Positions 911 to 42,198 of a DNA stretch of 63,771 bases are shown here, piece after piece. The position numbers and the translations under genes were made by a program. The notes below the pieces were generated by a model. The model saw only the letters and a program-made list of their open reading frames with translations. It made no database searches and was not told the DNA's origin. How positions within the stretch are numbered: the first letter of the stretch is position 1; every line of letters begins with the position of its first letter. The stretch lies in contig JARFYF010000022.1 of the NCBI GenBank assembly GCA_030265395.1, positions 49,880,835 to 49,944,605 of the forward strand, written 5' to 3'. The stretch is from Rhina ancylostomus (Eukaryota).

Positions 911-1127
911 TCGACGGAGGATTTACTGGTCGTTATTTTTGATCTTATTTTGAGACAAATTCCAATTGTTCACAACTTTCTTTTTGTGAGGTCTATCCCT
1001 TTGAGTAATTTCCACGCCATCCTGCTTCACGCCGTCACGGACTGTTGTGTCTAGTTCACCGTCACGTTCACCTTTGACCTATCTGTTGCCATTTGTTGCC
1101 AAAAGCTGAAATCTCGGTATTCTGCCG
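911..1127 (+). pseudogene. GPR139-like GPCR fragment (TM2-TM3-ICL2), cut by gap
   Basis: Translates to TEDLLVVIFDLILRQIPIVH...HAILLHAVTDCCV*FTVTFTFDLSVAICCQKLKSRYS, homologous to the other copies in the window, with an in-frame TAG. Confidence 0.85.
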
Positions 1128-1227
1128 NNNNNNNNNNNNNNNNNNNNNNNNNNNNNNNNNNNNNNNNNNNNNNNNNNNNNNNNNNNNNNNNNNNNNNNNN
1201 NNNNNNNNNNNNNNNNNNNNNNNNNNN

Positions 1228-2210
1228 TGAAGGACATGCATCTGCAACTTTGCCTGACATGGAAATGCTGTTTCGGTCCTTGGATGTTGGTAACGGAGGT
1301 GGTGCAGGGACAAAGGTTGCTCCTCCTTGGATTGGAGGGTAAAATGCTAGTGGAAGGGAATTATCGGTTGGGGAGAGACTGACGATCTTGCCAAATCAGG
1401 AAAGGTTGAAGAGGAGAAGATATGACTGATGGTGCGATGCCGCTGAACAGTTGGAAATGAAGGTAGATGCTGGGGCTGGTAGGGTGAAAGAGAGGAACAA
1501 GGTAGGTATATTTCTCTTCTGCCTAGTGGGAGCTGGGGTGCGTGAAGTGAGCGTGAAACAGAGGAAATACGGGTCAGCAACCTGTCAGCCGTAGGAGAGG
1601 AGAAACCACTTTTACTGATTCCTGAGGGCTTTTGAGATGTCGTCGAACGGAAAGTGTCATCTTGATATGTGGCGACGGTGAATTTCCAGGGTACAAGATG
1701 GGAGGACGTGTATTCCAGGCAGCTGTGGGAGTCCGTGCGTTTGTTGTAATCTTCAGTGGATAGTTGCGCTCCTGAGAAGGAGAAAACCGAAAGGGGAGAG
1801 AGGTGTTAGTGTGGTACAAATGAATTTGATGGCGGGTGTATGTCAGCAGTGGTTGATAAAATTGACAAATTCCGCACCGGTGGAGGAGGCAGCACCAATG
1901 CGGTCGTGGAGGGAACGGGGGAAGGCTCGGAGAATGGAGCCGGAGAAGGTTGGGAATATGGACTGTCTCACGGACCCAAGGCAAGCGCAACTCGGGCCCC
2001 TGCCAGTGTCCATGGCTGCACTTGTGAATTGTCGGATGTGTAGGGCATCAGAAAGGAAGCTGTTCAGGTAAGAACAAGTTCTGACAGGCGTGTGGGAATA
2101 TTCGAGGTGAGGAAATGGTTAGATACATGTTCTAGAAGGAGGCAAACGACCCTTAGTCTTTGCTTATGTGGAGTAGAGGTGTTCATGGTGAACATAAGGC
2201 GGCAGAGCCG
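1228..2210 (-). mobile_element. Penelope-like retroelement, decayed RT region
   Basis: Reverse-complement homolog of 44495-45500, with decayed RT and KPTDSHS-like motifs and many frameshifts. Confidence 0.75.
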
Positions 2211-2239
2211 GGGAATTCCAAGTTATTAAAATTAGATAA

Positions 2240-2500
2240 GATTTCTTTATGCGTCACATGTACATCGAAACACATCTGCGGGGAGACTTCTAGGGCAAGT
2301 GTCACCACGCTTCGCGCGAACAGAGCACGTCCATAACTTCCGAAAGCGTTCGTCTTTAGAATGTGAGAGGAACCTGGAGCACCCGGAGTAAACTCATGCA
2401 GACATGGGGAGAACGTACAAACTCCTTCCGGACAGTGGCGAGAGTTGAACCCGGGTCGCTGGAACTGGAACAGCATGACGCGAACCTGCGCACGACCGTA
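2240..2500 (-). mobile_element. tRNA-derived V-type SINE (elasmobranch HE1-like)
   Basis: Minus strand has a tRNA-like head (CCCGGGTTCAACTC), a V-domain-like core (TCCGGGTGCTCCAGGTTCCTCTCACATTCTAAAGAC) and a GATGTACATGTGAC tail. Paralog of 44208-44480. Confidence 0.75.
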
Positions 2501-3506: not shown

Positions 3507-4404
3507 TCAAATGTGTTTAATTAATTTTGCAGTTATACGAAACGGATATGTCACCACAGTTCTCAATTGCTCCCTGAACTTAGTCTGTGTCACAGCATAA
3601 ATGCACGTGTCTGAGCAACAACTCAGAAGCTGGAGTATGAAACCTATTTCAGTTACAAAGCCGCCGGGGAGATAAATAATATCATACCCCAACTTCCACA
3701 ACCTGTTCCATGTACAATGCACCGTAAACACAGACCATAACAGGATGAAATTTCCCGACATGACCAACAGCAGTATTATGGATTTCCTTCTGCTCTCCAT
3801 CTGTCTCTCGGAATCTCCCCACTATTATGACCCCGGAGTCTCCTGCGGGATCTGCTCGCCATTAAAATGTGTCTGACTGTTAAAGCGTTGAAGAGCAGAA
3901 TCAAAACAAACGGGACACACGGGGTGAGGATATAATGAAGACACTCAACTGTTGCAGAGGACCTTGACAGCATTACATGAACATCCATCAAACAAAACCA
4001 CGGAGTATTCACCAACTCGTACCAAGGTGTGTACATAAAATACCAGAACATATTCTTTATACTGCTAAGTCCAGTCACTGTTCCCAGAACCGTAGCTGCC
4101 GTCTTCTCGTTGGAAAAGCGAGCTTTCAGCTTTTGGCAACATATGACTACAAATGGATCAAAGGTGAACATGACGGTGAACCAGACCGAACTGTCCGTGA
4201 CGGCGTGAAGTAGGACGGCGTGGATATTACACGCGCGGAGGAACTTCAGAAAAACCATGTGATGAGCAATCGGAATCTGTCTCAATATTACATTAAAGAG
4301 AACGACCAGTAGATCCGCCGTCGACATGGCCACCAGGTGGAGCGTGACACATCTGGAGAGACCCCAGTTTCCCATAGACAGGACCGAAGTAGTCAACAGG
4401 TTAA
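3507..4404 (-). pseudogene. GPR139-like GPCR copy A, exon 2 (frameshifted)
   Basis: Acceptor ttcacag at 4405-4411, then (V)NLLTTSVLS... with 7TM homology across ORFs 3776-4396 and 3507-3800. A 4-nt deletion near 3800 shifts the frame, and DRY reads DPF. Exon 1 is not seen before the gap. Confidence 0.9.
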
Positions 4405-5563: not shown

Positions 5564-7826
5564 TTAAATGTGTTTAATAAATTTTGCAGTTCTACGAAGC
5601 GGATATGTCACCACAGTCTTCAACTGCTCCCTGAACTTAGTCTGTGACACAGCATAAATGCACGTGTTTGTTCAGCAACTCAGAAGCTGGACCATGAAAC
5701 CTATTTCAGATACAAAGCCTGGGAGATAAATAATATCATATCCCAACTTCCACAACCTGTTCCATGTACAATACACTGTAAATACGGACCACAACAGGAT
5801 GAAATTTCCCGAGATGACAAACAGCAGTATTATGGATTTCCTTCTGCTCTCCATCTCTCGGTCTCTCAGAGTCTCCCCGCTATTCTGACCCCGGAGTCTC
5901 CTGCGGGATCTGCTTGTCATCAAAATGTGTCTGACTGTTAAAGCGTTGAAGAGCAGATTCAAAACAAACGGGACACACGGGGTGAGAATATAATGAAGAA
6001 TCTCAACTGTTGCCAAGGTCATTGACATCATTACACGAACATCCATATAACAAAACCAAGGAGTATTCACTAACCTGTACCAAGGTGTGTACATAAAATA
6101 CCAAAAACATTCTTTACACTGATCAGCACAGTCACTGTTCCCAGAACCGTAGCTACCGTTTTCTCAGTGGAGCAGCGAGATTTCAGCTTTTGGCAACATA
6201 TCGATCAAAGGTGAACGTGACGGTGAACCAGACGTAACTGTCCGTGACGGTGTGAAGCAGGACGGCGTGGATATTACACGCGCGAATGTACTTCAGAAAA
6301 ACCATGTGATGAGCAATCGGAATCTGTCTCAATATTACATCAAAGAGAACCACCTGCAGATCCGCCATCGTCATGGCCACCAGGTAGAGGGTGACACATC
6401 TGGAGAGACCGCACTTTCCCCCAGACAGGAGAAAATCGTCACCGCGTTCACTGTGAACAGAACAAGCGAGAACACAAATTAACAGGTCAGAAGGTGTGCA
6501 GTGTCAGCATTCCTGGAATAAAGATCTTGAAGAAACAAACCTCCCTGTGAGAAAATTAAAGTACAGTGCTGACCCGCAACAGCGTGAAGAAGATATCATG
6601 CTCGCCCTTATCCAATCGAATATTATATTACCTGCTCTCAAATCGAAAGCAAAACCAAAGGTTAACCCGTCCGTGGCTGTGCAATTAAAGTTTCTGCAGT
6701 TGCGGTCTTAAGACTTGAACCGAACGGGATGGGAGTTTTTGGGGATTTCTTGTGTCAACCACAAGCCTGACGTTAGTCTGAACCAAGTCACATTGGCCCT
6801 TGCTTTGAACCGGGGAAAATAGCACTCGCATACACTCAAGTTACCGTTGGTGACCGTTGATTCCAAAGATAATGTCAGTTTTTTGGGTACGAACATAATT
6901 TCCGACGACTGTTGAAGACGTTATTGTGCCTTCGTAAGGACAAGCAGATATCACCTCCGTTGGTTAGGATAACTCTGATTGGACGTCTGACCCAATTGAC
7001 ATTGTGCTCTCTGACAGTGGAAATGAGATCAGGCAGCCATGAGATGAAGCATGCTCGTATGAAAAAAGCGATGCAAGAGTTGAATAACGACAAAAACACC
7101 AAATTTCATTCGATGGAGCTGAGGTTGGAATGGAGCCGTTTGCTGTTTCACAATAAATCATTTCCCAGCTGTGCCCAGTCGGACTTGCAGCATGATCTCT
7201 TCTAAAATGCAATTGGAACACAATCCAGGAAACAATAAAGAGAAAGGCAAATGAAAAGAATCTGTAATGAGAACTGAAATCCGATGTTAACTGCACTGGA
7301 CATCAGCTGCTTCAGAGCAGGAGACATCTTTTCTACTGGTGCAAGTTGTGACTGGTACTGGATCAGGATGACCGTTTTCAGTCACCCACTTACTTTCTGA
7401 ACTGGTCCACGCAGTCCACTTTCCTGTCCATTTCACGTTCAGTGATCCAGTGCACACACAAACACAGCAGTAAAATCCGAAAAACACGTATCCACGCAAA
7501 CATGCAGCCTGCCCCAACAATGGCTCATATCCGTCACATCACATGGCAATGAGAACAGAGTATCGTGTCATTTTTTTCTGGTCATATACTCGATCAGAGC
7601 AAGAAGCTGCGGCGCGTTAACAGGCCTGGACCGGGAATAGGTATTGGATGAATCGAATCTCCGTGTTGTGGGACCAACTGGATATTGCAGACGCACAGCT
7701 GAAGGTAATTTATAGCATAAACAGACGATTTACAAACTTACTTGGGATCCCGACGGCAGCCAGGATTGGATAGTATATCTTCTCGATATCATAAATGACA
7801 TCAATGATGTGCACATAAAGGGACAT
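5564..7826 (-). pseudogene. GPR139-like GPCR copy B (exon 1 7826-7742, exon 2 6450-5564)
   Basis: Exon 1 reads MSLYVHIIDVIYDIEKIYYPILAAVGIP+A then gtaagt (85 nt, phase 1); acceptor ttcacag at 6451-6457. Frameshifts near 6432, 6200 and 6108, and a premature TGA at 5672-5674. Confidence 0.9.
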
Positions 7827-8659
7827 CCAGCTTTCGTGGCGATAATTGTCGTCAATATCAGAGGTAATTCTCTAGAGGAACATGGAAAGGATTCCCATAT
7901 TAATAGGAAAGGGGAACCTCAACAGTGGGACAGTTGGAACTCATTAACCTGGTGTCGTTCACAGGTTAATTTGAACAAACATGTTCGAATTAATCCCTTT
8001 AAGCACGAAATATTTATGGCACAATCTGAAGTGACACCAGTGAACCGCCCTCTGGCTTTAATAACATTGAGGACATCATATGGTCGAGTAATAATGTTCA
8101 TCCCAACGTCTGTCTTCACCGCCTGTCATCTGGATTACCTCAAACTGCCGAACTCAATTGGCCTTTCCGTTAGTATCTCGCTGCCAAATGCACGAAATTG
8201 ATCACTAATCTGACATAAATTTCTGCTCAGACAACTTCCTTGTCAATCCACTGAAATTTCACCCGAAGTCCCAGACATCATCGGTGTTTCAAATGGGCCA
8301 ACCAACGCATGAAGCATTTCACTCTTAGTTAATGCTTTAACTATTTCTTTGATATTCATCTGGAAGATTCCCTTTTGCATGGGCAATGAGGAGAAGTATT
8401 CCTTCGTTCATGTTTCACTGTTTAAAATATTATCATTAAAGTGTACAAGAATGATACGATACCACCTCACCGACTGTCGAGATTCTGTCTGCTTCAAGTT
8501 AGAACCCTTGAATGGATCCACAGTAGACACATTCGCTATGCCGTCAATGATAGGCAGAATGACCCAAAGTGGCACCGACCATGCTCTCAGTCAGTAGTTG
8601 CCCTGCGCCTCCTCCCTCAACATAATCCAGGGCCCTCTACAGTTATGACATGTGACGCA

Positions 8660-12408: not shown

Positions 12409-13727
12409 GTCTGTCATCTGGGCACCAACGACATAGGCAGAAAAAGAGAAGAGGTCCTTAAGGAGGAATACAAAGAACTATACAGGAAGTTGAGAAGAAG
12501 GACCTCAAAGGTTGTAAACTCAGGAATACTACCTGTACCACGCGAAAATGGCAGAAAGATCAGAGGTTTAGCAGTTAAATGCTTAGCTGAATGACTGGTG
12601 TAGGGGGCAGGGTTTCATATTCCTCGACCATTGGGATCTCTTTTGGGTGAGGCATGAACTATTCTCTAAGGATGGGTTACACCTAAACTCCAGGGGGTCC
12701 AATGTCCTGTCGGGGATGTTTAACGTAGCTGTTGGGGAGGGTTTAAACTAATCTGGCAGGGGGATGGAAACCTAGATGTCAGGTTACAGGATCTTAAGGA
12801 ATGGAATGACGTTCATAGAGAAGAGACCAAATTAGTATACAGTGAGGATGACAGGAAAGACAGGCAAGCGAGGAGTCAGGATAACTTACCAAACATAAGC
12901 ACAACAAATCAGGATGTTAGAATGCAGGATGTTAGGATAGGTAGTGATAATGGTAGGACAGGCAGGTGCAAAGTCAAAAAGAATTGTCAAGTAGAAGAGC
13001 AAAAACAATCAATGGCTGATTCTAGAAGAAACGTGTAGTATCTAAATGCACATAGCATCAGAAATAAAGTAGACGAGTTAGTGGCACAACTACACATTAA
13101 GAAATACGACATTATGACAATCACCGAGTCGTGGCTTTACGACGGATGTGATTGGGAACTAAACGTCCAGGGGTACACAGTGTACAGGAAGGATGGGCGG
13201 GAAGGCAGAGGTGGTGGTGTCGCCATTATGGTTAGCAATAATATAAAATCATTAGAAAGGGAAGACATTGGATCAGAGGAGGTGGAATCCTTATGGGTGG
13301 AGCTAAGAATTAGCAAAAGTAAAAGAACAATAGTAGGAGTTTTATATAGGCCCCCAAACTGCAGTCAGGAAACAGAATACAAACTACAGTTTGAGATAGA
13401 AAAAGTGTGTCAAAGTGACAATATTAAGATAATTATGGGAGATTTCAACATGAAGGTGGACTGGGAAACTCAGCACAGTAGCACATCTCAGGAGAGTGAG
13501 TATGTTGAGTGTTTACAGGACGGCTTTGTGGAGCAACTCGTTGATGAGCCCACCAGGGGATTGGCTGTTTTAGATTAGGTGTTATGTAATGAACCGGAGG
13601 TGATTAGAGAATTAGAGGTAAAAGAGAAATTAGGAACTAGCGACCATAAGATGATTGAATTTAGCTGCACATTTGAGAAAGAAAAGCTGACAACTGATGT
13701 ATCGATACATCAATGGAATAGAGGAAA
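12409..13727 (+). mobile_element. CR1-clade LINE 5' part: ORF1 SGNH esterase end and ORF2 APE endonuclease
   Basis: ORF1 remnant VCHLGTNDIGRKR...SGILPVPR...FSKDGLHLN ends at TAA 12749-12751. ORF2 remnant YLNAHSIRNK...ITESWL...GGGVA...YRPP...IMGDFN...SDHKMI contains stops and is cut by a gap. Confidence 0.92.
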
Positions 13728-14047: not shown

Positions 14048-16114
14048 TCAAATGTGTTTGATAAATTTTGCAGTTATACGAAACGGATATGTCACCACAG
14101 TTCTCAATTGCTCCCTGAACATAGTCTGTGTCACAGCATAAATGCACGTGTCTGAGCAGCAACTCAGAAGCTGGAGTATGAAACCTATTTCAGTTACAAA
14201 GCCGGGGAGATAAATAATATCATACCACAACTTCCACAACCTGTTCCATGTACAATGCACCGTAAACACGGACCATAACAGGATGAAATTTCCCGAGATG
14301 ACAAACAGCAGTATTATGGATTTCCTTCTGCTCTCCATCTGTCTCTCGGAATCTCCCCACTATTCTGACCCCGGAGTCTCCTGCGGGATCTGCTCGCCAT
14401 TAAAATGTGTCTGACTGTTAAAGTATTGAAAAACAGAATCAAAACAAACGGAACACACGGGGTGAGAATATAATGAAGAAACTCAACTGTTGCCCAGGAC
14501 ACTGACATCATTACACGATCATCTATATAACAAAACCACGGACTATTCACCAACCCGTACCAAGGTGTGTACATAAAGTACCAGAACATATCCTTTATAC
14601 TGCTCAGTCCAGTCACTGTTCCCAGAACCGTAGCTGCCGTTTTCTCGTTGGAACAGCGAGATTTCAGCTTTTGGATACAAATCGATCAAAGGTGAACATG
14701 ACGGTGAACCACACCGAACTGTCCGTGACGGCGTGAAGTTGGACGGCGTGGATATTACACGCGCGGATGAACTTCAGAAAAACCATGTGATGAGCAATCA
14801 GAATCCGTCTCAATATTACATTAAAGAGAACGACCAGTAGATCCGCCGTCGACATGGCCACCAGGTGGAGGGTGACACATCTGGAGAGACCCCAGGTTCC
14901 CCTGGACAGGACCGAAATCGTCAACAGGTTAACTGTGAACAGAACGAGGGAGAAGACAGATTAATAGGTCAGAAGGTGTCCAGTGTCAGCATTCCTGGAA
15001 TAAAGATCTTGAAGAAACAAACATCCCTTTGAGAAAATTAAATTGCAGTGGTGACCAGCAACAGCGTTAAGAAGATATCATGCTCGCCCTCGTCCAATCA
15101 CACATTATATTGGCTGTGCAGTTGTAGGTTCTGCAGTTGCGGTCTGAAGACTTGAACCGAACGGGATGGGAAATTTTTGGGGATTTCTTTTGTCAACCAC
15201 GAGCCTGACGTTGGTCTGAACCAAGTCACGTTGACACCTGATTTTAACTGGGGAAACGAGCACACGCATACACACAAGTTACCGTTGGTGACTGTTGATT
15301 GAAAAGATGATGTCAGTCTTTTGGGTACGACCATAATTTCCGACAACTGTTGGAGATGTTTCGAATGCAAGTTTCAAAGGCACCAAAATTGCACGGCGAT
15401 GGAGCTGAGGTTTGAATGTAGCCGTTTGCTGTTTCGCAATAAATCATTCCCCATCTGTGCCGAGTCGGCCAGGCAGCCTGATATCTTCTAAAATACAATT
15501 GGAAAGCAATCCAGGAAACAATAAAGAGAAAGGCAAGTCGAAAGCATCTGTAATGAGAACTGAAATCCGGTGTTAACTGCACAGGACATCAGCTGCTTCA
15601 GAGCAGGAGATATATGTTTTACTGGTGCAAAGTGTGACTGGTACTAGATCAGAGTGACCATTTCCAATCACGAACTTCCCTTCTGAACCAGTCCACGCAG
15701 TCCACTTCCCTGTTCATGTCACGTTCATGTTCCTGTCCAGTGCACACAAACACACCAGTCAAATCCGAGAAACAGGTCTCCACGCAAACATGTAGCCCGC
15801 CCCAACAATGGCTGATATCCGTCACATAATCTGGCAATGGGAACAGAATATCGTGTCATTTTTTCCTGTCAATTTGCCCGATCAGGGCAAGAACCTGCGG
15901 TGTGTTAACAGACCTGTACCAAGAGCAAGTACTGGATGAATCGAATCTCCGTATTGTGGGACCAACGGGATATTAGAGACGCAGAGTTGAAGGTAATTTA
16001 TAGAACAGACTGCTGATTTACTAACTTACTTGGGATACCGAGGACATCCAGGATTGGATAGTATATCTTCTCGATGTCATAAGTGACATCAATGATCTCC
16101 ACATAAAGGGACAT
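14048..16114 (-). pseudogene. GPR139-like GPCR copy C (exon 1 16114-16030, exon 2 14932-14048)
   Basis: Exon 1 MSLYVEIIDVTYDIEKIYYPILDVLGIP+A then gtaagt; acceptor ttcacag. A 10-nt deletion after FDRF (about 14672) and a 4-nt deletion near 14340 break the frame. Confidence 0.9.
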
Positions 16115-17004: not shown

Positions 17005-17730
17005 ATCGGAAAGACCAAGCGCAGACCAGGCGACCGGCTTGGCGAGCACATGCACTCCCTCCGCCATGGCCGACTGGAACTCCCCATTGATTCCCCTTTC
17101 CCACTCCGATATGCGTGTCCTGAGCCTCATGTACTGCCAAGGGGAGGCGAAATGCAAACTCGAGGAACATTTCATATTCTGCGCAGGTAGTCCATAACCT
17201 ATTGCATCAACACTGGATTGTCCAGTCTCAGGTAACCTGTTTTCCCTTTGCCCCCTTTCCCTCTCCTCAGTTCCTCCCACACCCAACCCAGTCCCGATCA
17301 TCCATTCTTTCCTCTCCTACCCCCACTCCATCTTCCATCACCCATGCACTCATTTGATTTGTTCGCCTCAGCCTATAGTTCACATTTCTCCCTTATTTGC
17401 TTCCGATTCTCCAATTTCCTCTTCAATCAAATGCCGTCATCTGCAGCCCTTTGTTTCCTCCACCTATCACATCTCAGCCTCTTCCGCTACTTCCACCGTT
17501 CCCTCCTCCATCTGTCCATCACCCCTTCACCTGGATCCACCTATCACTTTCCCGCCCTGACACCACCCCTTCCCCTCGTTATACTGACTCCACGAGATTT
17601 CCAGTCCAGATGAACGGTCTCAACCAGAATCGCCAACTGTCCATTTCCCTCCACACATACAGCCTGACCCGCCAAGTCTTTCCAGAAATTTGTTTGTTTT
17701 TTTTGCTCCAGATTCCACCATCTACCGTCT
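17005..17730 (+). mobile_element. Penelope-like 3' fragment, paralog of 8660-9370
   Basis: CIGKTKRRPGDRLGEH-like motif, CKLEEHFIF and the same tail, at the same position upstream of the GPCR as in copy B. Confidence 0.7.
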
Positions 17731-18167
17731 CTGGCACCTCATTTCTAGATGACCGATCCCGTGTCTTTCGATTATATCTGCTCGTTGGAGGCACTCTCAC
17801 AGAGAAACCATCTACCTTGTCACATCTCCTGTTTCTCACACGTTTCTGTAAAATCAACCCTCTTCTTGTAAATTCCGAAGATCATGACCAGATTTATTTA
17901 TCTTCTCTTTATAGGACAACACATACATAACGAGGCGAAGGAAAGAAGAAAGAGGAAGAAGATTCCGATCGTCCCACATCGTCTGTCGACGTTCGTTCCA
18001 TTCCCACTCCACCAAAACTGGTGACAAATCCTTGTTGTCAGCTTGTGCTCTCACAAAGCGCAAACCGGACCGGGGCTTGTGCTACGGTGAGAATAGTTGA
18101 TCTCTCAAACGTCTTTCAGAAAAACGTTCAATTATGCTGAAAATAGTAAGTCGAACCCATCAGCACA

Positions 18168-26121: not shown

Positions 26122-27311
26122 CGAGCTGTGGGTAGTAGCGATTCCATGTACCCTGCCCTTATCAATAAACCAGACGATGAACCATCGTCAATTTCTTAGT
26201 TGCGGGAAAGCCGATCCCCTTTATGATAGACACTCGAAGCTTCTTTTATCGCCCAGCATGATTTTGAACTGTCCACTGCCTCAGTTCCATTAAGCAGGCT
26301 GGAGGGACAGGAAAGATCCTACACCTTTACAAGTGAAATTTCGAGATCGGTATTTCTGATCGAATTCGCAGTAACCCCAGGCCTAGGGGTTAACCTCGCC
26401 GGGAAGGACCTGCTCTGCACCCTCCGACTCAAAGTACAATACCTCAATGAAGGAATTACCATCACTTAAATCCCATAGGATACTCTGGATTCACCAGCCT
26501 CCTCAGTGGTGGACTGTGGACTTAAAGAATGGAGATTTTGACCCACACTTGAAAACCCATGACCCACATTTGACGCTAGTTTATGACCCCATAGGGGTCT
26601 CATATGCCAAGCATGGTGACTGTCAATATTTTAGAAGTCGAAGGTAAGGAGGGGACAGTACTTTTAGTTCAAGTGCCCGATGAATTGTGGAATCAGGCTT
26701 GATGTCCTCTCATATTGTCCTGTCAGTTAATGAGGGTCATAAACCGAAGGAGCTAGGATTCCTAGCACACCGACTTGAGGCACAGGCAGACACAGGCCTT
26801 TACGGGGTTCCCCTGACTCTGATAGAAGGGACCCGATATTACCTCACCCCTTTCTCGGTGACAGGCTGTTTACGCCACCATCAGTCCCACCGACTCCCTT
26901 CGGATGAGCCAACCTCCGATTTATGGCCACATCGAAAGCTGAAGTAGGATTCACCCCAGTTACCCCAGTCCAAATCCGTGTAAAACCGGGAGCACAACTG
27001 CCTTCCGTCCAACAGTACCCACTTCGGAGAGAGGCAGTTGATGGAATAACCTATTTAATAGATTCATTCTCCAAACTGACCATTCGGGTTCCCTGCAAAT
27101 CACCTTGCAACCCCCCCCCCCCTATTTTACCCGTCCCCAAACCCGGACGGACGGAATGGCGCCTTGTACAAGACCTGCATAAGGTCAATGAGACAGGAGA
27201 GCTACTGCATCCCTTGTTCCCAAACCCAGCCACCATTCTCAGCAGCATTCCTGCCGACTCCTGTATTTTTACTATTGTGGACCTCCAGCATGCATTTTTA
27301 GCAATTCCTCT
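26122..27311 (+). pseudogene. pol: ERV pro-pol (protease, putative 2H-phosphoesterase, RT N-terminal half)
   Basis: Protease-like FLVAGKPIPFMIDT and NLAGKDLLCTL. RT motifs QQYPL, SPCN-PILPVPKP, WRLVQDL, PNPATILS and FTIVDLQHAF. Confidence 0.92.
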
Positions 27312-27439
27312 NNNNNNNNNNNNNNNNNNNNNNNNNNNNNNNNNNNNNNNNNNNNNNNNNNNNNNNNNNNNNNNNNNNNNNNNNNNNNNNNNNNNNNNNN
27401 NNNNNNNNNNNATGTTTCCCACAGATTTCACAACTCAGC

Positions 27440-27630
27440 TTCACACTGGGATCCACTTACAATGGCCAAGTAAATTGTCAAATCTCACTCTTTTGGGATG
27501 TGGGAGGAACTCGGAGAACCCCGGGGAAACGCACTCGATCAGAGGGAGAACGTGAAACCTCCGCACAGTCAGCAGCCGAGGTCACGATTGAACCGGATGT
27601 GAAAAGTCTGGACTCTGTACTGCAAAGGAC
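27440..27630 (-). mobile_element. V-type SINE fragment
   Basis: TTTTGGGATGTGGGAGGAACTCGGAGAACCCCGGGGAAAC...GATTGAACC is the antisense of a V-domain plus tRNA-like head. Confidence 0.65.
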
Positions 27631-27769
27631 AACGCTTTGGACTTCCGTGGGTGTTTCCTTTCCTCGGAACCGTACTCTTATCCTTGGAATGAACGTTGAA
27701 TTGCAAATAAATTGCATGGTGATTTCGGGGAAGTTTTGTGTTGTCGAAAGATTAGCGTGGTTCATGAAC

Positions 27770-29540
27770 AAAGTTCCTGCACTGGATGAAGGTCAGTTTC
27801 ACTGTTATTATCATTACGTACAAGAGAAGCTTGGGAACCGCTTTTTTGAATGAATATACATCCAACAAATGGGCGTCATTGTAAAAGTGAAATAGTGAAA
27901 GTTCAGTACCAACGTGTTCCTGTAGGACTTAAATGTAAGGAGGTCTTGTGACCTGGGCTATATAGGAACGTCGAGAGTTCGATTAAAAAAACATAAAAAG
28001 ACACATGACCGGTATGGGGAACGGAAAACAGCTGAGGAATTTTTGGCAGATGGAATCTGTACAGGAGGTGAGGGGTGAAGGTGTAAAAACCGGACAGCAA
28101 AAGAGGTGGCAAGAAGTATCCCTGGCAGAAAAGATTAAAGGAAATCCCAGGACAGTGTATTTGCATATTCTAGAAATGTGGTAAACCAGGCAAAGTGTCG
28201 GTCGCATCAATGACCGAAATGGGAAATCTGTTCGTTTGACCGAAATGTTGGGTCAGGTTGTAAATGAATATTTTTTCTATTTAGTGCGGAGACGAACATT
28301 ACAGTTGTAAATTTCAGGAACGGGTGCAATGGCATTCTGGAGCGGGTTAACATTAAACAAAGAGAATGTATTAGATGTCCCAGCAAGCAGAGAGTTGAAA
28401 TTTTCCCCAAGATCTGATGAAGTGGGCTGCTTTGGGNNNNNNNNNNNNNNNNNNNNNNNNNNNNNNNNNNNNNNNNNNNNNNNNNNNNNNNNNNNNNNNN
28501 NNNNNNNNNNNNNNNNNNNNNNNNNNNNNNNNNNNNCGTAAACAGAGTTCCTGCTCTGGATGAAGGTCCGTTTCACTGTCATTAGCAGTACGTGACAGAA
28601 GATTGGGAACTGCTACGTTGAATGAATCTGCATCTAACAAATGGGAGTCATTGTAAAAGTGAAAGAGTGAAAGCTCAGGACTAACATGTTCGTGTCGCAC
28701 TGAAATGTAAGGAGGTCTTGGAACCTGGGATATCAAGGAACCATGAATAAAGGCAATGGAAAATAGTTTCGGCATTTTTGGCAGACAGAATCTGTACAGG
28801 CGGGGAGGGGTGAATGGGGAAAAACGGACAGCTAAGAGGTGTTAAGAAGTAGCCCTGGCAGAGAAGATTAAAGGCAATCTCGGCACAGTTTATTTTCATA
28901 TTCCAGCAATGTGGTGAACCAGGCAAAGAGTCGGTCGCATCAAGGACCGAATGGGAAATCTGTGCGTGTGTTCCAAGTGTTGTGTCAGGTCGTAAATGAA
29001 TAATATTTTATTTTGTGTTCTGTGAGGAGACAAATATTGTGGTTGAAGATTTCAGGATGAGGTGCAATGGCATTCTGGAGCTGGTTAACATTAAACAAAG
29101 AGAATGTATCAGATGTGCCAGCAAGCAGAAAGTTGAAATTTTCCCCAAGAACTGATGATGTGTATCACAGGCTGCTTGGCGAGGCAATGTGGAAGGTTGT
29201 TGGGGCCACAAGAGACACATCTATTAAAAAATCTTCACTGGCTACAGGTGCGGTGCCGGATGACTGGAGTTTAGGAGATGTTCTGTCTCCATTGCAGAAG
29301 GGCAGCATGGATAAGTCAGCAGTCACCTGCCAGGCTTCGCCAGCAATGACAGACTAAATTTCATGACAGTGAAGTTAATGGGGAAGAAAACCGAGGGACA
29401 CCAATGATATGCACTTCGACAGTGAGGGATTGTTCAGGGAAAAGTCAGCATGGATTTGCTGGTGGGAGTTCCTGTCTGAATGAAGTAGTTCAGCTTCTTG
29501 AAGAAGTAATGAACTGGATTGAGGAGGGAACTGCTGGTGA
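27770..29540 (+). mobile_element. Old CR1 ORF2 fragments, duplicated across the gap (about 27770-28436 and 28545-29165)
   Basis: AKRWQEVSLAEKIKGNPRTVYLHI-like tether, SSLATGAVPDDW and SQHGFAGGSSCL motifs. The two flanks of the gap are colinear homologs. Confidence 0.75.
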
Positions 29541-30510: not shown

Positions 30511-31744
30511 GCTTTCCCATAGCTTTCTTTGATCTGCAAGGAAATTTAGTGCCACCTCTTGTACAATAAGTTCTATGTTCTTTTTATTCTACGTCTTCTG
30601 TGGGCAAACACTATAAAATTTAATTTGAGAAGTCTCCGTGGACCCCGTGTGCCTTCCGCTTTTGGATCAAACTAACAATGCTTCACTGAAATCGACATGT
30701 TCATCACCCCACTTCCTATCCTCATCGATAGTTCTCTTCACCCACTCAATCATACACAGTTACCTCTGTAATACATGAGCTCCCCTGCAGAAATCCACGT
30801 TGTCTGCCTCGCATAAGTCTATAACTTCCCAGCTGTGTGTCGACCCTATCCCGTAGAACCTTCTGCAATACTTTCCCTGCCACAGATGGAAGGCTCGCCG
30901 GCCTGCAATTTCCTGGATTCCCGGTTGCCTTATTTTAACAAAGGAAAATCACCGAACATTCCCCTATATTATGGGACGTCCAAAGTGCAAAAATATCTGC
31001 CAAGGACTCAGAAACTTCATTTGCTTCTTTGAACAACCATTATACCCTGGGGATTCAGCCACTGTAATATTCGATGACAGTGTGTTTGTCGTTGGGGAAT
31101 ACAGCATGTACATTCCAGGCGTATCAGAATCTGAGCAATTTCATAGCAGAGATCTGCATAGGTGGCACATCTGTCTGCAGTTACGGTCATCCTCAGCAAC
31201 AGAGAATAAATACCGAACGCCTTTGACCGGACTGTTCATCGACGCTGCATGAGACGCGCCGCTGGAAATATCGCAGGTTATATTTCTGTCCGGAGGATTC
31301 TCCACAGGAACATTCACGTTCACATGAACGTTCTCCGTTCTCGCAACCGGTAACGTCACCGTTGACAGACACGTCACAGACACTTTCCATTAAACTTACC
31401 GCTACAGTGGTCAAGACAGAGAAATCTTTCGCTGAGACCAGCACATCTCGCCGTTGGCACGCGGCTGGAAACGCAGTCCATAGACGCGTGAATTCACGAC
31501 GATAAAACAAATGACCAGAGGATGGCGGCCGAAATTGTTGGTGGCGAACAGAAAGGTGAAGTCAGCAATTCTCTTTACCATAATCAATGTTTTATTGTGC
31601 TGAAGCGAACCCGGGCATATTTTCAACCCCCATTTTTGTGAAAACAATAAATATTTCCATTCACACTGTCGTATAGTTTTTTTTCCGATCACTTGCTGTG
31701 AACGAAAACACAACATTGCAATTTCATGTCAATCAGTGTGGCGA

Positions 31745-32030
31745 CATCCAGCATGAAGGACCCTCTCCATCTGGGACACGCCCTCTTCACTTTATTTCCA
31801 TTGGGCGGGAGGTACAGGAGGCCGAAGACCCACACTCAAAGATTCAGGAACAACTTATTTTCCTCTGCCATCAGATTCCTGAGCGATCCATGACCCCTGA
31901 ATATAAAGTCGCTGTTCCTCTTCCGCACTATTTACTCAATTTTGCAGCTGAAAGTATTTTTTATGTGTTGCGCTGCACAGCTGCTGAAAAAATAATATAT
32001 GTTCCAACAGGTCACTGATTCTGATTCTGA
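31745..32030 (+). mobile_element. Rex1/Babar-like LINE 3' end
   Basis: KDPLHLGHALFTLFPLGGRYRRPKTHTQRFRNNLF-SAIRFL-like C-terminus with a (CTGATT)n tail. Confidence 0.7.
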
Positions 32031-32163
32031 AAACACGGCTTTCAAATGCACTTGTGTGTCGGTTGATGATTCAGTTCCGTGACCAACCGGACTCTCAGCA
32101 GTTAACGTCTCAGGTGTAAAGGGAGATGAAAAGCTGCTCGATGTAATGCCCTGAATTCCAACA

Positions 32164-33074
32164 TTATTTTCTTTCTTTAACACATTTCAATAATATTCCC
32201 ATCAGATATTCCATCCCTTTCATAATCTCCTGTCTGAATTTAGACTGAGTCACTGCATAAATACAAGTGTTTGTGCAGCAGCTCAAAAGAAGGAGCATGT
32301 AGCTGGTTTCATCTGCGATATACATCGGGTCGCTGAAACTGGCTGCATAATAACGCTTAGTAATTTGCACCCAGAGAAAAAGTACAAAATACGTCATCCA
32401 AAGCAGTATGAAATTGCCGGATATCGCAAAGAGTAAGATGATGGACTTCCTTCTGTTTTCCATCGCGGCATCATTGCGATTCGCATCATTCTTGTTGCTT
32501 CTTAGATTCCTACGGACTCTGCTGGCCGCTAAAATATGTCCCACGGTCAGAGCATTGAGCAGAGATATGAAGAACATTGGGAAGAGAGGGGTAAAACAGC
32601 GGTGAATCCAACTGAAAGCTATCCACGTGGTTTCAATGTAGACAGCTAACTTTCCAGAGCAGCCCCACTGCACATTGCCTTTGATAGCAAAGGGTTCAAA
32701 TACAAAGTACCACGGGATGTTTTTACAAACGAACAGTGCACATACAGTGGCTATCACCCTGGCTGCAGTTCTCTCTGTGCAATATCTGGTCCGCAACTTG
32801 GGACAACAAATCATAACATATCGATCAAATGTGAAAGACAGTGTCAACCACACGGAAATGTCTGTGGCTGCATGATTTAAGGCCTTATGGGCTGAACACG
32901 CTTGGGTAATATAAAGGAATCTTGTTATGACATATAAATCATTAATACGGAACAGGATCACGTCAATGACCACGACCAACAGATCTGCCGCCGCCATGGC
33001 TACGAGGTAGCGAGAAACACACCTGGAGAGGCCGCACTTTCCCCGGGACACGATCACAATCGCCAGCACATTCG
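32164..33074 (-). CDS. GPR139/GPR142-like class A GPCR copy E, intact major coding exon
   Basis: Acceptor atcacag at 33075-33081, phase 1, then an uninterrupted frame of about 303 codons: NVLAIVIVSRGKCGLS, AADLL, FDRY, FTPLFP, CCTNTCIY and helix 8 KFRQE. Exon 1 was not located. Confidence 0.88.
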
Positions 33075-33334
33075 CTGTGATAGGGGAAAAATCAGAAACA
33101 AAGATTCACCTTTCAGCACACATTTCCATAGCCAGTGACGCCGGGCCAATCCACGGCTGCCCTCTCAGATCAACAAAGATCAACAATCAGAGACAAAGAT
33201 TTACCCGTCAGCCTACATTTCCAGAGCCGGTGACTCCGTGCCAATCCACGGCTGCACCCTCAGGTCAGAACTGAACATTGACACGAGCAGGGACAGGAAA
33301 GGGTTTTACCCCTGGGGCGACGGAGGGTGAGAAC

Positions 33335-33700
33335 TGACATTGCAGAGGTATATGAAGTCATGAGGGGCATGGATAAAGTGAATTGCCACACGCTTTTCCC
33401 CGGGGTAGGGGGACCTAAAACTGGAGTGCAAAAGTCCAGACTGAGAGGGAAAAGATTTCAAGTAGACCCGAGGGCCAACTTTCTCACGCACAGGCCGGTG
33501 GGTTCCTGGAATGAATTGCCAGAGGAGGTGATAGAAGCGGATACAACCACAATGATTAAAGGACACTCAGGCATTTAAATGGAAAAGAGAGGCTTCGTTA
33601 GATAAGTGGCAGATGCAGGCAAAGTGGGTCGGGATCTGGTGGGAAAATTGGTCAGCATGAGAAATTTGGGTACAAAAATTTCCTTGGCGTTTAACTCTCT
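33335..33700 (+). mobile_element. CR1 3' end
   Basis: DIAEVYEVMRGMDKV...FLTHRPVGSWNELPEEV followed by a 3' UTR. Confidence 0.8.
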
Positions 33701-35382
33701 GAATCAGCGATTTTCCCGCTGTGGAGCTTCTTACTGAAGCACCTACATTTACTTAAAGATGCTACATTGAAAAGTAAAGCATTGCGAAATGACTATATTG
33801 AGGATTTTCTCTGGTACTTCATTGCTGGGTTGACACAGAAAATTGCAGCTCAAAAATACTCCTGGTTTTACACATATCTGTAACGTCATGAATCAACGGA
33901 AACTCAAAATTTATATTCGGAAACAATACTTAGAAGTAAAGAGCGGAATTTCCAGTATAATGATTTGCTCGTTCTGAAGATCAGATTTATCAGAAACAGA
34001 TAGACATGAAGTAACCGCAAATTTTCCTGTTTTTTTTCCAGTTTCTGCTGATGTTAGAGATCTTCAGAATAATCTGCCGAGGAACGGAGCTTTGCGTCTA
34101 TTTGCCAAACTTCTCCAGAAATTAACCTGGCAGGGTTTCATTGTGCTGATGTGTTGCAGCTCATAAAAAGTAAATTCGTTTAAATCACGAGTGGTCAAGG
34201 TCAATGACTGATGGCGTGAGGGTGAGGATACTCGGACGCCACATAGTGGACTCCAGGGCACGAACCTCGGCTCCATGCACTATCGTAACATTGAAGTCTT
34301 CCAATTTTCCCTTCTCAAGTGATACCATAAAACGATTGATGTATGTGAGAAATGGAACCGTTGTTCATGACGATGTGTTGAGACCTTCGGGAACGTTATA
34401 TTGGTGGGATTTACCTCGCCGATGGATGAACGACTGAAATCAGTAATGAAGTAAATTTTAATAAGCACGGGGAGTGTGGGTTGAGAAAAGGTAAATTGGA
34501 TGATCTGTCCACAATCGAGGCTGACTGACCAACTAATTAGTTTCAAGATAAGGGATTCTGACAAACGATATGCATTGGACGTGGTCTAGTGTTTTTGATG
34601 CCAACTGCTTGATTGGTACACACATCATTGTTTTGGCAAAGTGGGAAAAATGGATTGAATGATACAGTGAAGTATTGATACCAGGTTGGACAATGCAGAC
34701 GAGGTGGTGTGTCGCGTAGCTGGAGAAGTTTTCCTGGGAGTGGAGGGGGAAATGCCCCAGGAAGCAGATCTTCCCACAATATATTTTCCACACATGATAC
34801 TATTTCGGAGTTGGTGCGCATTTGTGAAGTATAACGTTCTGTGGATGGCAGAGAATTATTGTTGTGGTCCACCCCGAGGAAACAAAGACACCAGAGACAG
34901 TGTAAAAATGGCAAAGAAATGGCGGATAAAATGTCAACGGAACTGAACTGAGCAGATAAAACAGATTAAATGAGGGAGCGTTAAGTTTGNNNNNNNNNNN
35001 NNNNNNNNNNNNNNNNNNNNNNNNNNNNNNNNNNNNNNNNNNNNNNNNNNNNNNNNNNNNNNNNNNNNNNNNNNNNNNNNNNNNNNNNNGAACCGTGTCA
35101 ACCAATTACCGCTGCTGCGTGGCAAACCAAGTTTTCCATATCTGTCTCACGATTCTTCTGCAATCTCATCATTCCCCCCTAACAAGAGGCAATCACTCCT
35201 TCATTCCGCCACCCATTGTATTGTGAGGTTAGTCAGAAACATTTACTGAGCCAATTGACTGTTGTCGTTTCGAAGATCACACTCTTTTTGAGGAAACTCT
35301 CCCAGCTATTTGCACGTAGTTGCTTTTTCAGTCACCCTTCAAGGGGTTTCTACATTTTCCCCTTCCGACTCTGCTTCCTGTC

Positions 35383-36052
35383 AGAACATAGGACATAGAA
35401 CAATACAGCACAATACAAGCCCTTCGGCCCACCATGTTATGCTGTACATCAAACCACCGAGCACTATCTAACCCCTTCCTCCCGCATATTCCTCCATCCC
35501 ACATTCCTCCATATGCCGATCCAACGATTATTTGAACCTGTCCAACCATCTGAGTCCTCCACCACCACAAGCAGCGCGTTCCACGCACCAACCACTCTCT
35601 GGGTGAAAAACCTCCATCTGACATCTCCCCTGAACTTCCCACCAGTAACCTTAAGACCATGCCCTCTTGTCTTGAGCATTGGTGCCTTGGGAATGAGGCG
35701 TTGGCTTTCTACTCTATCTATTCCTCTCAATATTTTATCAACCGCCATCATGTCTCCCCTCATCCTCCCCCTCTCCAGTGACTAAAGCCCCAGAAATTTC
35801 AGCCTCTCCTCATATTCCATACTCTCTAATCCAAGCAGCATCCTGGTGAATCTCCTCTGCACCCTTTCCCACACCTCCACATCCTTCCGTTAATGCGGCG
35901 ACCAGAACTGAACACAGTACACTAAATGTTGTATAACCAGAGTTTTGCAAAGCTGCATCATCACTTCGCGGCCCTTAAACTCGACCCCACGACTTGGGAA
36001 AGCTAACATCCCATAGGCCTTCTTAACTACCCTATCCACCTGTGAGGCAATC
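35383..36052 (-). mobile_element. CR1 3' end, relatively young
   Basis: QVDRVVKKAYGMLAF...YCVQFWSPH...FFTQRVVGAWNAL, with a CATAGAACAATACAGCAC tail. Confidence 0.92.
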
Positions 36053-38495: not shown

Positions 38496-38584
38496 CGGCC
38501 ATGACAGGACTCTAACCTGCAAACCTCTACTGCTATCACGTGAAACACCAAAGATAGACGCTTTATCCATTGGGCCACAAAGTC
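38496..38584 (-). pseudogene. Intron-containing tRNA-Arg(TCG)-type gene, anticodon now TTG
   Basis: 89 nt = 73 + 16. GACTTTGTGGCCCAATGGATAAAGCGTCTATCTTTGG|tgtttcacgtgatagc|AGTAGAGGTTTGCAGGTTAGAGTCCTGTCATGGCCG followed by TTTT. Confidence 0.75.
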
Positions 38585-38967
38585 CATCCTTCTCAGTAAC
38601 CGAGAAAAAAAATCATCAATGATGCTGGGTCCGGGGTTTGTCAGAAAGTGAGAAAAAGGTGTGGTCCCTTTTTCCAGCACACAGAATACAACCTTGTTTG
38701 AAGTGTTCCGACTCGTAGAATTGTTCCGTGAAGGAACCAATAGAATTTTCAGATGGAGCGGAGTGTTTATCGCGGCAGAGAAGTTGGAAGGATCATGTAG
38801 TTTGTCTTGTCCATTCTCACTGACAGATACAATGAGTTCATGCTGGCTCGGTGAGGTGCCTGGAATGAACTGTTTCAGGGTCGAAACTAAATGTAAGTGG
38901 ACCGGACCAGTTGAGGCAGACATCACTTTCCCTTCTCCGTGGGTAGTCAGAAGTACCACTGGCTTTC

Positions 38968-39131
38968 TCTCATTTATGTCACCATTGTTATGACGATGAT
39001 GGACTCAGGGCTTAGGTTCCCAACACTCTGAGAAATAACACATTGCATGTCTCATTTATGTCACCATTATCATGACGATGATGGACTCAGGGCTTAGGTT
39101 CCCATCACTCTGAGAAAGAACACATTGCATG
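38968..39131. repeat. 82-bp tandem duplication (2 copies)
   Basis: TCTCATTTATGTCACCATT...CACATTGCATG repeated at 38968 and 39050 with a few substitutions. Confidence 0.92.
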
Positions 39132-40636
39132 TGGCCGGGACTCGATAATTAACTCGTTATTGCTGCCCACATTTTTTCATCACCACTCTGGAATCCTCAT
39201 TCGGAATCGCGCACCGCTGCACTTCCACCACACAAGATATACAGTGTCTGAAAACTGCAATAAATGAGAACGGCGAATCTTTGGAATTCTCTGTCCCCAG
39301 GAGACGGGACCATTGGATATTGAAAGTGCCTCAAAACAGTTCGTCCGGTGTTCTGATCGCTTCCTGCGTGTGTTACTCGACTTGGGCGAGCCCTTTTCCT
39401 GACGCAACTTCTGTTTTTAATTTCAAATCTCCACCTCATTCACACGAGTTTTGCTCACTTATTATCGGAGGGCATACTCACGTGGCCTACTTATTCATAT
39501 GGAATCTGAACTACAGATCGTCCTCCGTCAGTCACACGGAGGGAGTCATCGGTTCCATCGACCACTTGGATATTCTTGCAACACATGTGCCTCCAGAAGC
39601 CGCATCCGTGCATAAAGCTTGATGCAGGAGTCACGGGTAAAGCTGGCAATTTTCCCCGAAATAGTCACATACAAACGGCAGACCTGAATCCAAAAAACAA
39701 GTCATTTGACGACTGTCCCAAGTCATTTGATGTGAACGACGGAGAACAGCGATAAGATAAGAAGCGGTGAGCTGGAATCCATTCGGTTCTCCGGCTCCAA
39801 CTGTCATGGCTGGTACTTCACCCCATCCATTCCCTGCTTCCGGTGGTTAACAACTGACTGATGGCAAGTTCTGTGACATTTTGGGTCTCTCTGCGTATCA
39901 CTGACGGCAGAACAAGTGTTTCTACGATGAATCACTCAAGGTTTAGAGGTTGAAAGTGAAAGAATCACGTCAGGCGGTGAGGTGGTGCCATGCACTTCAT
40001 AATCGCCTCAGCGATGATCTTTAAAGCAGCAAAACACGAAGGAAGAAAAACTTCTCCTCATTGTCCATGTCAAGTGATATATAGTTTTCCGGGTAGGTGA
40101 ATATCGAAGAAGTTGAAAGATTGTGGAATAACGATATAAAAGAACAATTGCTTCTTGCGTTCGTTAGCCCGTTTGAAACACCGATGTTGCCTCAGATGTG
40201 GGGCGAACTTTCAGTGGACTGAGAAGGACGTGTTTTGAGCAGAATTTTTTTTGAGAGTCGTGATACATTTCGTGTAACTGGCAGCGAGATACTAACGGAG
40301 TTTCCAACTGTGTTGGACAGTTTGATGTAATCCAGATAGCCGTCAGTGAAGGCAGGTGTCGGGGTGAACATTGCTACTCGACCACGTGGTGATCTCAGTG
40401 TTTTTATATCAGAGGGCGGTTCACTGATTACACAATAGATTGCGTGATTAATATTCCCGGCTCAAAGGGAATAATTAAAACTTGTTTGTTCAGTGACCGT
40501 GAACGACATCAGGTTAATGAGTTCCAGATGTCCCAGTGGCGACGTTTCCCTTTTCTATTAATATACGAATCTTTCCATGTTCCGCTACCGAATTACCTCC
40601 GACATTGACAGCAATTATCTCCACGAAAGCTGTAAG

Positions 40637-42198
40637 ATGTCCCTTTATTTCGAGATCATCGATTCTTTCGTGATATCGAGAAGATATACTGTCCGATACT
40701 GACTGGTCCTGGGATCCCGAGTAAGTTAGTAAATCAGCCGTTTGAGCAATAAATTACCTTGAACTGTGCGACTGTAATATCCAGTTGGTCCTAAAATACG
40801 GAGATCCGATCCATCCAGTACCTAGTCTCAGCGTCGGGCTGTTGACACGCCGCAGGCGTTTGCTCTGATCGGTATATTCACACTCTCGTTGGCCAGGTGC
40901 AAATGAATAGAAACTGACCCGTTATTCTTTTTTCACTGCCATGAGATTTGAGGGACATCAGCTATTGTTGGGGTGAACTGCATGTTTGCGCTGAGTTATT
41001 TTTTCCGATTAGACTGGAGTGTTTGTGTGTGCGCTGTATCACTGACCGTGACCAGGAACAGGTATTTGGACTGCGTGGATTACTTCAGAATGGAAATGAT
41101 GATTGACAATGGTCACCCTGATCCAGTACCAGTTATCCAGTGCGCCAATGGACCAACTGTCCAGGTTCTGAAGCAGCTGATATCCTGTGCGGTTAAAACA
41201 GGACTGCAGATCTCATTCCAGATGTGTTTACGCCTTTCTTTTTATTGTTTTCCGGATTGTTTTGCAATTTCATTTTGGAAGAGAACAATCTGCCAGGGAG
41301 ACTCGGCACAGCTGGGTGTCTTCCAGCTCCATCTCCATCGTCGTACAATTGGGGGTCTTTGCTGTTATTCGAATATATTGAATCCTCCATCACTTTATTG
41401 ATGCAAACATTCTTCCATTCATGGATATCTGGTCCAATTTTAAATGTAACCACATGTTAATTGGGTCAGGCGTCCAGAGTTGTCATCCAAGTTTGGGGAG
41501 ACCTATATGTACATACAAAGGCTCAATGAAATCTCCACCAGTTGTCGGAAATTATTTTCGTACCCAAATAACTGGGATCATCTTTAGAATGAATAGTCAA
41601 CAAAGTTAACTTGAGAGTATGCATGTGCTAATCTCTTTCTTCAAAGCAGGTATCAACATTACTTGGTTCAGACTAATTTTACGAGCGTGGTTGACACAAT
41701 ACATCCAAAACACCTCATATCTCGTTTGCTTCAAGTCGTCATAACTCAACTCTGGAATATACAATTGCACAGCCAAGGACGGAGACACGTTTGGTTTTGC
41801 ATTGGATTTGAAAGAAGTAATATGATGTGTGATTGGACATGGGGAGCATGACTTCCCGTTAACCATGTTGCTGGTCAACACCAGAATTTAATTTTATCAC
41901 GGGGAGCTTTGTTTCCTCAAGATCTTTATTCCAGGAATTCTGACACTGCACCCATTATGTCCCGTCCTTTTGTCTTCTCGTTCGGTTTGCTCACAGCTAA
42001 CCTGGTGACGATGTTGGTCCTGTCTCGGGGAAACTGCCGTCTCTCCAGATGTGTCACCCGCTATCTGGTGGCCATGGAAGCGGCGGATCGGCTGATCGTT
42101 TGCTCTGATCTAATATTGAGGCAGACTCTGATTGCTCATCACATGCTTTTCGTGTGGTCTATCCGCGCGTGTCATATCCACGTCGTCCTGCTTCACGC
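40637..42198 (+). pseudogene. GPR139-like GPCR copy D (exon 1 40637-40720, exon 2 from 41997, cut by gap)
   Basis: Exon 1 ATGTCCCTTTAT...GGGATCCCGA then gtaagt is 84 nt, one short of the paralogs. Acceptor ctcacag, then NLVTMLVLSRGNCRLSRCVTRYLVAMEAADRL. Intron and upstream flank are homologous to copies B and C. Confidence 0.85.

Follow-up and report, generated by a model that had tools for sequence, protein, structure and literature searches.

A large family of 'probable GPR139' receptors with candidate chemosensory features in the ray Rhina ancylostomus

Receptor copies in the analysed window

We analysed a window of 63,771 nucleotides from Rhina ancylostomus (assembly GCA_030265395.1, contig JARFYF010000022.1, positions 49,880,835 to 49,944,605 of the forward strand). 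It ends 13 kb before the end of a 49.96-Mb scaffold; the genome comprises 2.2 Gb. The window contains members of a family of two-exon genes encoding class A G protein-coupled receptors (GPCRs). Exactly six second exons were found by tblastn with the open exon of copy 5 as the query (E-values from 1e-9 to 0), and their lesions were scored against an open relative as reference. The receptor features are listed below, where TM denotes a transmembrane helix, N an unread base and O/E the Olf/EBF promoter motif.

905..1127, plus strand: copy 1, second-exon fragment (TM2-TM3), pseudogene; 5'-truncated, in-frame TAG at 1052, runs into an N stretch
3510..4404, minus strand: copy 2, second exon; -4 frameshift near 3806
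5567..6450, minus strand: copy 3, second exon; frameshifts at 6431, 6201 and 6103, TGA at 5674
7742..7826, minus strand: copy 3, first exon (85 nt), starting at ATG and ending ...YYPILAAVGIP; phase-1 donor GTAAGT, then an intron of 1291 nt
7921..7930, minus strand: copy 3, promoter, degenerate O/E-like site by sequence, three mismatches, then TATTAAT; usual position in the family
14051..14932, minus strand: copy 4, second exon; 10-nt loss near 14675, -4 near 14344
16030..16114, minus strand: copy 4, first exon (85 nt), starting at ATG and ending YYPILDVLGIP; phase-1 donor GTAAGT, then an intron of 1097 nt
32164..33074, minus strand: copy 5, second exon, open, 303 codons, from the second half of TM1 to helix 8; Pfam 7tm_1
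40531..40540, plus strand: copy 6, promoter, O/E-like site TCCCAGTGGC by sequence, two mismatches, at -106, then TATTAAT
40637..40720, plus strand: copy 6, first exon (84 nt), lacking one base and hence frameshifted; phase-1 donor GTAAGT, then an intron of 1276 nt
41997..42198, plus strand: copy 6, start of second exon; N from 42199 cuts the exon

An initial annotation, made from the letters of the window, had described six copies on both strands within about 41 kb, five of them disrupted and one with an intact exon. The six second exons, spanning 905-42198, agree with this, and five copies are indeed broken; copy 5 can be called intact for its second exon only. The phase-1 intron within TM1, also proposed there, is borne out at the acceptors of copies 2-6. 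The proposed common first exon of 85 nt ending YYPILAAVGIP holds in part. First exons are seen for three of the six copies (3, 4 and 6); the length is 85 nt in copies 3 and 4 and 84 nt in copy 6, and the exact ending occurs in copy 3 only. No own first exon was found for copy 2, and the nearest one is that of copy 3.

Neither protein nor DNA searches revealed a first exon of copy 5 within the window. The stretch VPLTFYP near 34930 was considered for this role and rejected, as it has no matching continuation. In the relatives of copy 5 the intron measures 0.2-4.7 kb, often 2.1-2.6 kb, and thus the missing exon would be expected near, and may sit under, the N stretch at 34990-35089. First exons of the family mostly code for 22-23 residues.

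Copies 2-4 are 89-95% identical to each other at the DNA level. One lesion of copy 4 is common to copy 2, and its 10-nt loss lies near that of copy 3. Together these observations suggest duplication or exchange after gene death. Copy 5 belongs to a subfamily different from that of copies 1-4 and 6, with about 42-55% protein identity to them. Five further second exons and two lone first exons were found in a 257-kb region around the window, 28% of which is N. The two lone exons (C22:49843509-49843637 and 49850412-49850585, minus strand) have no second exon nearby in this gappy assembly; their upstream DNA is conserved, with 81% identity over 0.8 kb.

Size and origin of the family

By its Pfam match (7tm_1, E 6.7e-19) copy 5 belongs to the class A GPCRs. 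Its AlphaFold2 model (pLDDT 84.9) has TM-scores of about 0.7 to NTSR1, GPR139 and opioid receptors. In a comparison of similarity to receptor chains, NTSR1 and GPR139 rank above OR52c and TAAR. Scaffold residues of the class are kept almost throughout the 128 distinct open second exons collected from the genome: D2.50 in 128, C3.25 in 125, R3.50 in 126, F6.44 in 127 and W6.48 in 126.

Three exact degenerate motifs matched the genome 256, 355 and 243 times, versus 0, 0 and 4 matches of the reversed-pattern controls. Among the 355 matches of the second motif, the first 62 listed are all family copies (62/62): 29 are open, one of these shifting frame near the end, 23 are broken and 10 contain N. 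Broken copies thus make up 23 of the 52 assessable matches. The motifs are present in 47, 53 and 46 of 154 full-length gap-free copies, a set chosen by similarity, biased towards open copies and including one row that is a conserved paralogue. Division of the matches by these rates, done by hand, gives about 840, 1,030 and 800 copies. Broken copies carry the motifs less often; with a correction for this, the extrapolation rises to as many as about 1,300, and roughly 400-500 main exons would be open. The direct lower bound is at least 355 motif matches and 128 distinct open exons. The latter show pairwise identities of 37-94%, no pair exceeding 95%, and allelic duplicates were rejected as their source. 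In a protein search of the same genome 130 of 3,580 candidates were scored, all at 47% identity or above. The birth-and-death multigene family proposed in the initial annotation is therefore real, and far larger than the window shows.

Related proteins are found in other cartilaginous fishes. The best 120 of 2,063 protein database matches all come from 13 sharks and rays, and nearly all are named 'probable GPR139'. ESM Atlas clusters, with taxa given at the phylum level, contain only 'probable GPR139' and FMRFamide-receptor-like proteins. Shark proteins nest within ray subfamilies in the trees, which places the expansion before the split of sharks and rays. Family clusters lie mostly in the last 0.1-5 Mb of scaffolds C12, C22, C50, C53-C56, C58, C62, C65 and C68. 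This could reflect a true subterminal location or repetitive contigs scaffolded at the ends.

The genome also encodes a separate true GPR139 (L031), 99% identical to a protein of Hypanus sabinus, and a separate true GPR142 (L063). Family members are 22-34% identical to GPR139, and the median identity to GPR139 and GPR142 is 21-22%. Outgroups were collected by a profile-free search of 50% representatives with the GPR139 of this genome, and the same search exposed two paralogues, both single-copy here. Paralogue A (L194) has relatives in coelacanth, sturgeon, teleosts, amphibians, reptiles and sharks; paralogue B (L190) has relatives in bichirs. The main tree contained 31 rows, including eight family rows and nine of the 54 unnamed outgroup rows; the OR (odorant receptor), TAAR, V1R and V2R families were left out. 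Support was 100/100 for the family, 82/88 for the family with paralogue A, 98/97 with paralogues A and B, 89/84 after addition of two amphioxus proteins, and 100/99 after addition of GPR139 and GPR142. A quick tree of 63 rows concurs.

A single clade of the family, GPR139 and GPR142 is rejected by the approximately unbiased (AU) test (p=0.019). This grouping had been named in the initial annotation before any tree was built, and the test was run after the trees had been inspected. Orthology of the family to GPR139 was rejected, given this result and the true orthologues elsewhere in the genome. A phase-1 acceptor before the TM1 asparagine is common to GPR139, GPR142, both paralogues and the family, and the first exon of paralogue A is short and ends FYPLLAVIGIP. 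Thus, of the original assignment as GPR139/GPR142-like, membership in a wider chordate group and the TM1 intron stand, and membership in GPR139/GPR142 proper does not. By its position in the trees, the family is a lineage of its own beside GPR210-like paralogues, within this wider group.

Beside GPR139 and GPR142, Rinne et al. 2019 described sets from coelacanth, gar and fish, which they named GPR210A and GPR210B, with a third subtype in addition; the sets as reported there include no cartilaginous fish (PMC6504862). The GPR210-like relatives in our data include coelacanth XP_005988539.1, catshark XP_038675532.1 and the bichir XP_028654722.2 cluster. We infer from the taxa, the accessions being unmatched, that paralogues A and B correspond to GPR210A and GPR210B. 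The third gar and coelacanth set could be the bony-fish orthologue of the ray family.

Paralogue A (C53:27240612-27241580; L194, L206) is a conserved orphan GPCR whose orthologues range from sharks to reptiles; databases wrongly name it GPR139 or GPR142. Its pocket is polar and near-invariant (R3.28, D3.29, Y3.33, Q5.43, R6.51, Q6.55), which makes it a good target for deorphanisation. Paralogue B (C2:82060805-82061689) groups 100/100 with bichir proteins and has the TM1 acceptor phase of the family.

These GPR210-like paralogues are the nearest relatives of the family in the tree. Paralogue A shares with it the short first exon, the phase-1 intron and C3.25, at a median identity of 29%. However, the pocket of paralogue A is near-invariant across jawed vertebrates and no O/E-like site occurs in the 450 bp upstream of the gene, whereas in the family the pocket varies among hundreds of copies. 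With GPR139 and GPR142 (PDB 7VUG, 9M42), two orphan receptors of class A that L-Trp and L-Phe activate, the family shares the wider chordate clade, the phase-1 acceptor, W6.48 (126/128) and the database label. In contrast, GPR139 and GPR142 lack the C3.25 that the family keeps, and E108, R244 and N271 of their agonist site are present in 1, 1 and 15 of the 128 family copies.

The OR, TAAR, V1R/ORA and V2R/OlfC repertoires resemble the family in their clusters, birth and death, variable extracellular side and conserved signalling side. By sequence the family is not a member of any of them: the only Pfam match of copy 5 is 7tm_1, there is a coding intron in TM1, and descent would be from a neuropeptide-receptor-like lineage.

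Pocket diversity and selection

The GPR139 agonist site has been described as E108, F109, H187, W241, R244 and N271 (PMC7318219). All six residues are invariant in our 15 GPR139 and seven GPR142 rows. In the 128 open family copies they are kept in 1, 26, 56, 126, 1 and 15 cases, respectively, with at most three of the six in any copy. Amino-acid sensing, which the initial annotation had suggested along with peptide sensing, cannot be transferred from GPR139/142, since E108 and R244 each occur in one copy of 128 and never together. Sensing of tryptophan or phenylalanine in the GPR139 mode was also rejected.

The pockets differ between copies. Mean entropy over the 128 copies is 2.28 bits in the pocket, 2.23 bits at other extracellular positions and 1.06 bits on the intracellular side. 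Pocket positions reach 2.4-3.4 bits, with scaffold residues near invariant, and 12-residue pocket signatures take 115 distinct forms in the 128 copies.

Of 40 sister pairs, the 18 that had diverged by less than 0.35 at synonymous sites were used to estimate the ratio of nonsynonymous to synonymous substitution rates (dN/dS). It equals 0.36 overall (0.30-0.43), 0.25 in the intracellular half, 0.47 in the pocket and 0.51 at other extracellular positions. The open copies are under purifying selection. For positive selection, site models M8 and M8a were compared with our own code in six disjoint clades covering 109 of the 128 sequences; the code did no more than scale the branch lengths and applied no screen for gene conversion or recombination. 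The comparison was significant in four of the six clades (2dL 13.8-99). Thirty-two columns were flagged: 24 extracellular outside the pocket, five in the pocket, two intracellular and one in the C-tail. This result is supportive, not final, for positive selection on the extracellular side. Two points raised in the initial annotation bear on this. Intact copies do not evolve neutrally, as seen from both the overall ratio and the site models. The ratio in the pocket does exceed that of the intracellular half; however, it is below 1 and no higher than at other extracellular positions.

One explanation of the whole family is passive segmental duplication near chromosome ends, or inflation of copy number by assembly artefacts, with most copies functionless. 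Many clusters near scaffold ends, five dead copies of six in the window, some with common lesions, and a gappy assembly would all fit it. However, purifying selection largely refutes it; in addition, there are no near-identical pairs among the open exons, and sharks and this ray have subfamilies in common. We regard it as very improbable.

Promoters and the likely site of action

First exons were found for 107 of 189 copies; 88 promoters were left once duplicates, and copies whose upstream sequence was short or had gaps, had been removed. The start codons are heuristic assignments. A strict O/E pattern occurs between -400 and 0 in 21 of the 88 promoters; shuffled sequences gave a mean of 2.9 and a maximum of 5, introns gave 2/83 and far-upstream windows 2/67. 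Sites with at most one mismatch to TCCCNNGGGA are found at -220..-60 in 25 of the 88, versus 2, 2 and 3 in equal windows upstream. Between -125 and -76 there are 22 such sites, and the motif lies about 110 bp before the inferred ATG. When promoters are collapsed into 54 groups without mutual blastn links, 13 groups have the site and the control gives 2. TATA-like boxes are present in 41 promoters, with an O/E-like site just upstream in 14/41, versus 0/201 control TATA-like sites. Homeodomain-like motifs peak at -200..-100. In the window, a more degenerate site that starts with TCCCA occupies the O/E-like position of the family in copies 3, 4 and 6.

O/E and homeodomain sites are described in most mouse OR promoters (PMC5404925). 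The promoters of the family resemble odorant-receptor promoters in this respect, and the predicted motifs indirectly support chemosensory use. We consider it somewhat probable that the family, hundreds strong, two-exon, class A and apart from GPR139 and GPR142, serves as chemical sensors, most likely in olfactory neurons. A wider proposal is held with slightly more doubt than confidence. It is that sharks and rays have an extra olfactory family, recruited independently from a GPR139-related peptide-receptor lineage and wired to a promoter with O/E and homeodomain sites like that of odorant receptors. Its working genes would number several hundred, roughly tenfold the known OR, TAAR, V1R and V2R genes together.

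The family could instead encode immune receptors on leukocytes (B cells, granulocytes) that sense microbial peptides or metabolites, like the expanded FPR, MRGPR and chemokine-receptor families. Rapid gene turnover and positively selected extracellular loops are consistent with this; EBF1 is a B-cell factor, and the fold neighbours CXCR2, C3aR and GPR1 score like neuropeptide receptors. The MAS1-related family is reported to be lacking in cartilaginous fishes (PMC8455134). However, ETS and NF-kB motifs show no positional peak in the 88 promoters and the octamer has only a small bump at -300 (5/88), whereas the homeodomain-like, O/E-like and TATA peaks are sharp. Moreover, the receptors closest to the family in the tree are orphans of neural or enteroendocrine cells (PMC7318219). 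This makes an immune role rather unlikely.

A forkhead-like motif, TGTTT[GA]TT, also peaks at -200..-100, on the sense strand, in 18 of the 88 promoters, and occurs upstream of window copies 3, 4 and 6. It would suit chemosensory cells outside the nose, namely taste papillae, solitary chemosensory cells of skin and gill, or enteroendocrine cells of the gut, for which the same pocket diversity could be expected. GPR142 is itself an amino-acid sensor of gut and islet. The small number of known taste receptor genes in cartilaginous fishes, only 2-5, also speaks for such a site (PMC10869828). However, hundreds of receptors would exceed the known taste and gut repertoires of most vertebrates (PMC10869828), and the O/E and homeodomain pairing is documented for olfactory promoters (PMC5404925). 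A site outside the nose is thus unlikely, to a slightly greater degree than an immune role.

The promoter motifs bear also on a role inside the body, since EBF and homeodomain factors are active in many neurons. The receptors might recognise endogenous peptides or other cells in brain, gonad or embryo, forming an identity code rather than reading outside chemicals. They keep the cysteine that links TM3 to extracellular loop 2 in peptide receptors (C3.25, 125/128), and GPR139 is expressed in the brain and responds to peptides (PMC7318219). However, with about half or more of the copies dead and the pockets copy-specific, co-evolution with a few host ligands is a poor fit, and we consider this improbable.

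In the reading that we prefer, an ancestral single-copy GPR210-like receptor would have duplicated before the shark-ray split. Local duplication would keep producing copies, about half or more of which die, and the survivors would diverge in pocket and loops towards different waterborne ligands. Peptides or polar metabolites are the best guess for these ligands, since the fold is that of peptide receptors; tryptophan or phenylalanine sensed in the GPR139 mode is not expected. EBF-family and homeodomain factors would drive sparse expression. Each working gene would be active in some of the sensory neurons only, and its receptor would bind a different ligand from outside.

Several observations weigh against olfactory use. 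The pocket defined a priori evolves no faster than other extracellular sites, and its pooled dN/dS is below 1. The selected sites are mostly in loops (24/32), a pattern that immune receptors would fit too, two of the six clades lack positive selection, and the site test used our own code and scaled branch lengths, with no recombination check. For copy 5 itself, the assembly shows no first exon, and the dN/dS of its own branch is poorly fixed (0.32-0.68). As for the promoters, 63 of the 88 have no site at one mismatch or fewer, and the rate is similar in broken (3/12) and open copies (22/76). The promoters are paralogous, so that the counts are not independent, and positions are counted from heuristic start codons rather than from transcription starts. 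EBF factors act also in B cells and in other neurons.

Published catshark data do not help either. Catshark olfactory neurons are described as all microvillous and positive for Go and TRPC2, with robust expression of V2Rs and not of ORs (PMC10116579); a class A family may be present in such neurons, yet these data give it no support. The 50 most specific genes reported for a catshark brain and olfactory library include no GPCR, although a large family would be diluted there (PMC11979771). For copy 5, no RNA data set was listed as containing it. Three raw RNA runs and one contig set were compared with positions 31500-35000 at 85% likeness. Exon depth was low, no read reached 99%, alignments lay in both orientations, contigs were unspliced and tissues unlabelled; these data were not used, and no evidence of expression was drawn from them.

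We found no description of the family in full texts in PMC and bioRxiv, subscription journals being outside the scope. GPR139 is absent from the main texts of the catshark sensory genome paper (PMC11979771) and the whale shark paper (PMC8455134), and the Squalomix preprint on tandem duplication (10.1101/2025.06.08.657570) contains no '139', supplements being partly or wholly outside the scope. Cartilaginous fishes have been reported to have relatively few GPCRs (PMC8455134). Whatever the tissue, this paucity is contradicted by a family labelled 'probable GPR139' in which several hundred receptors are open and diversifying. Ten cartilaginous fishes are credited with 20-62 complete olfactory receptor genes, fewer than any other vertebrate group, although their olfactory neurons are many (PMC10869828). 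If the family is olfactory, this puzzle of a small repertoire would be resolved, and vertebrate smell receptors would have another independent origin.

Other elements in the window

Near-tandem duplicates flank two stretches of 100 N: 17620-19650 versus 19751-21868 (92-93% identity), and 27767-28424 versus 28541-29162 (79%). They represent either true segmental duplication or redundant assembly.

A decayed long terminal repeat retroelement lies at 55300-58300 on the minus strand, with matches to DUF7041 (gag-like), RVT_1 and rve. The region 24400-27560 contains broken open reading frame fragments at 26908-27309 (plus strand), by eye similar to a retroviral-type reverse transcriptase, and at 25558-25986; there is no Pfam match at E 0.001. 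A fragment of a long interspersed element (LINE) endonuclease (Pfam Exo_endo_phos) is at 13039-13578 on the plus strand. Finally, four copies of a repeat, 74-81% identical and similar to LINE 3' ends, are situated at 35383-36050, 48860-49630, 61136-61810 and 62874-63665.

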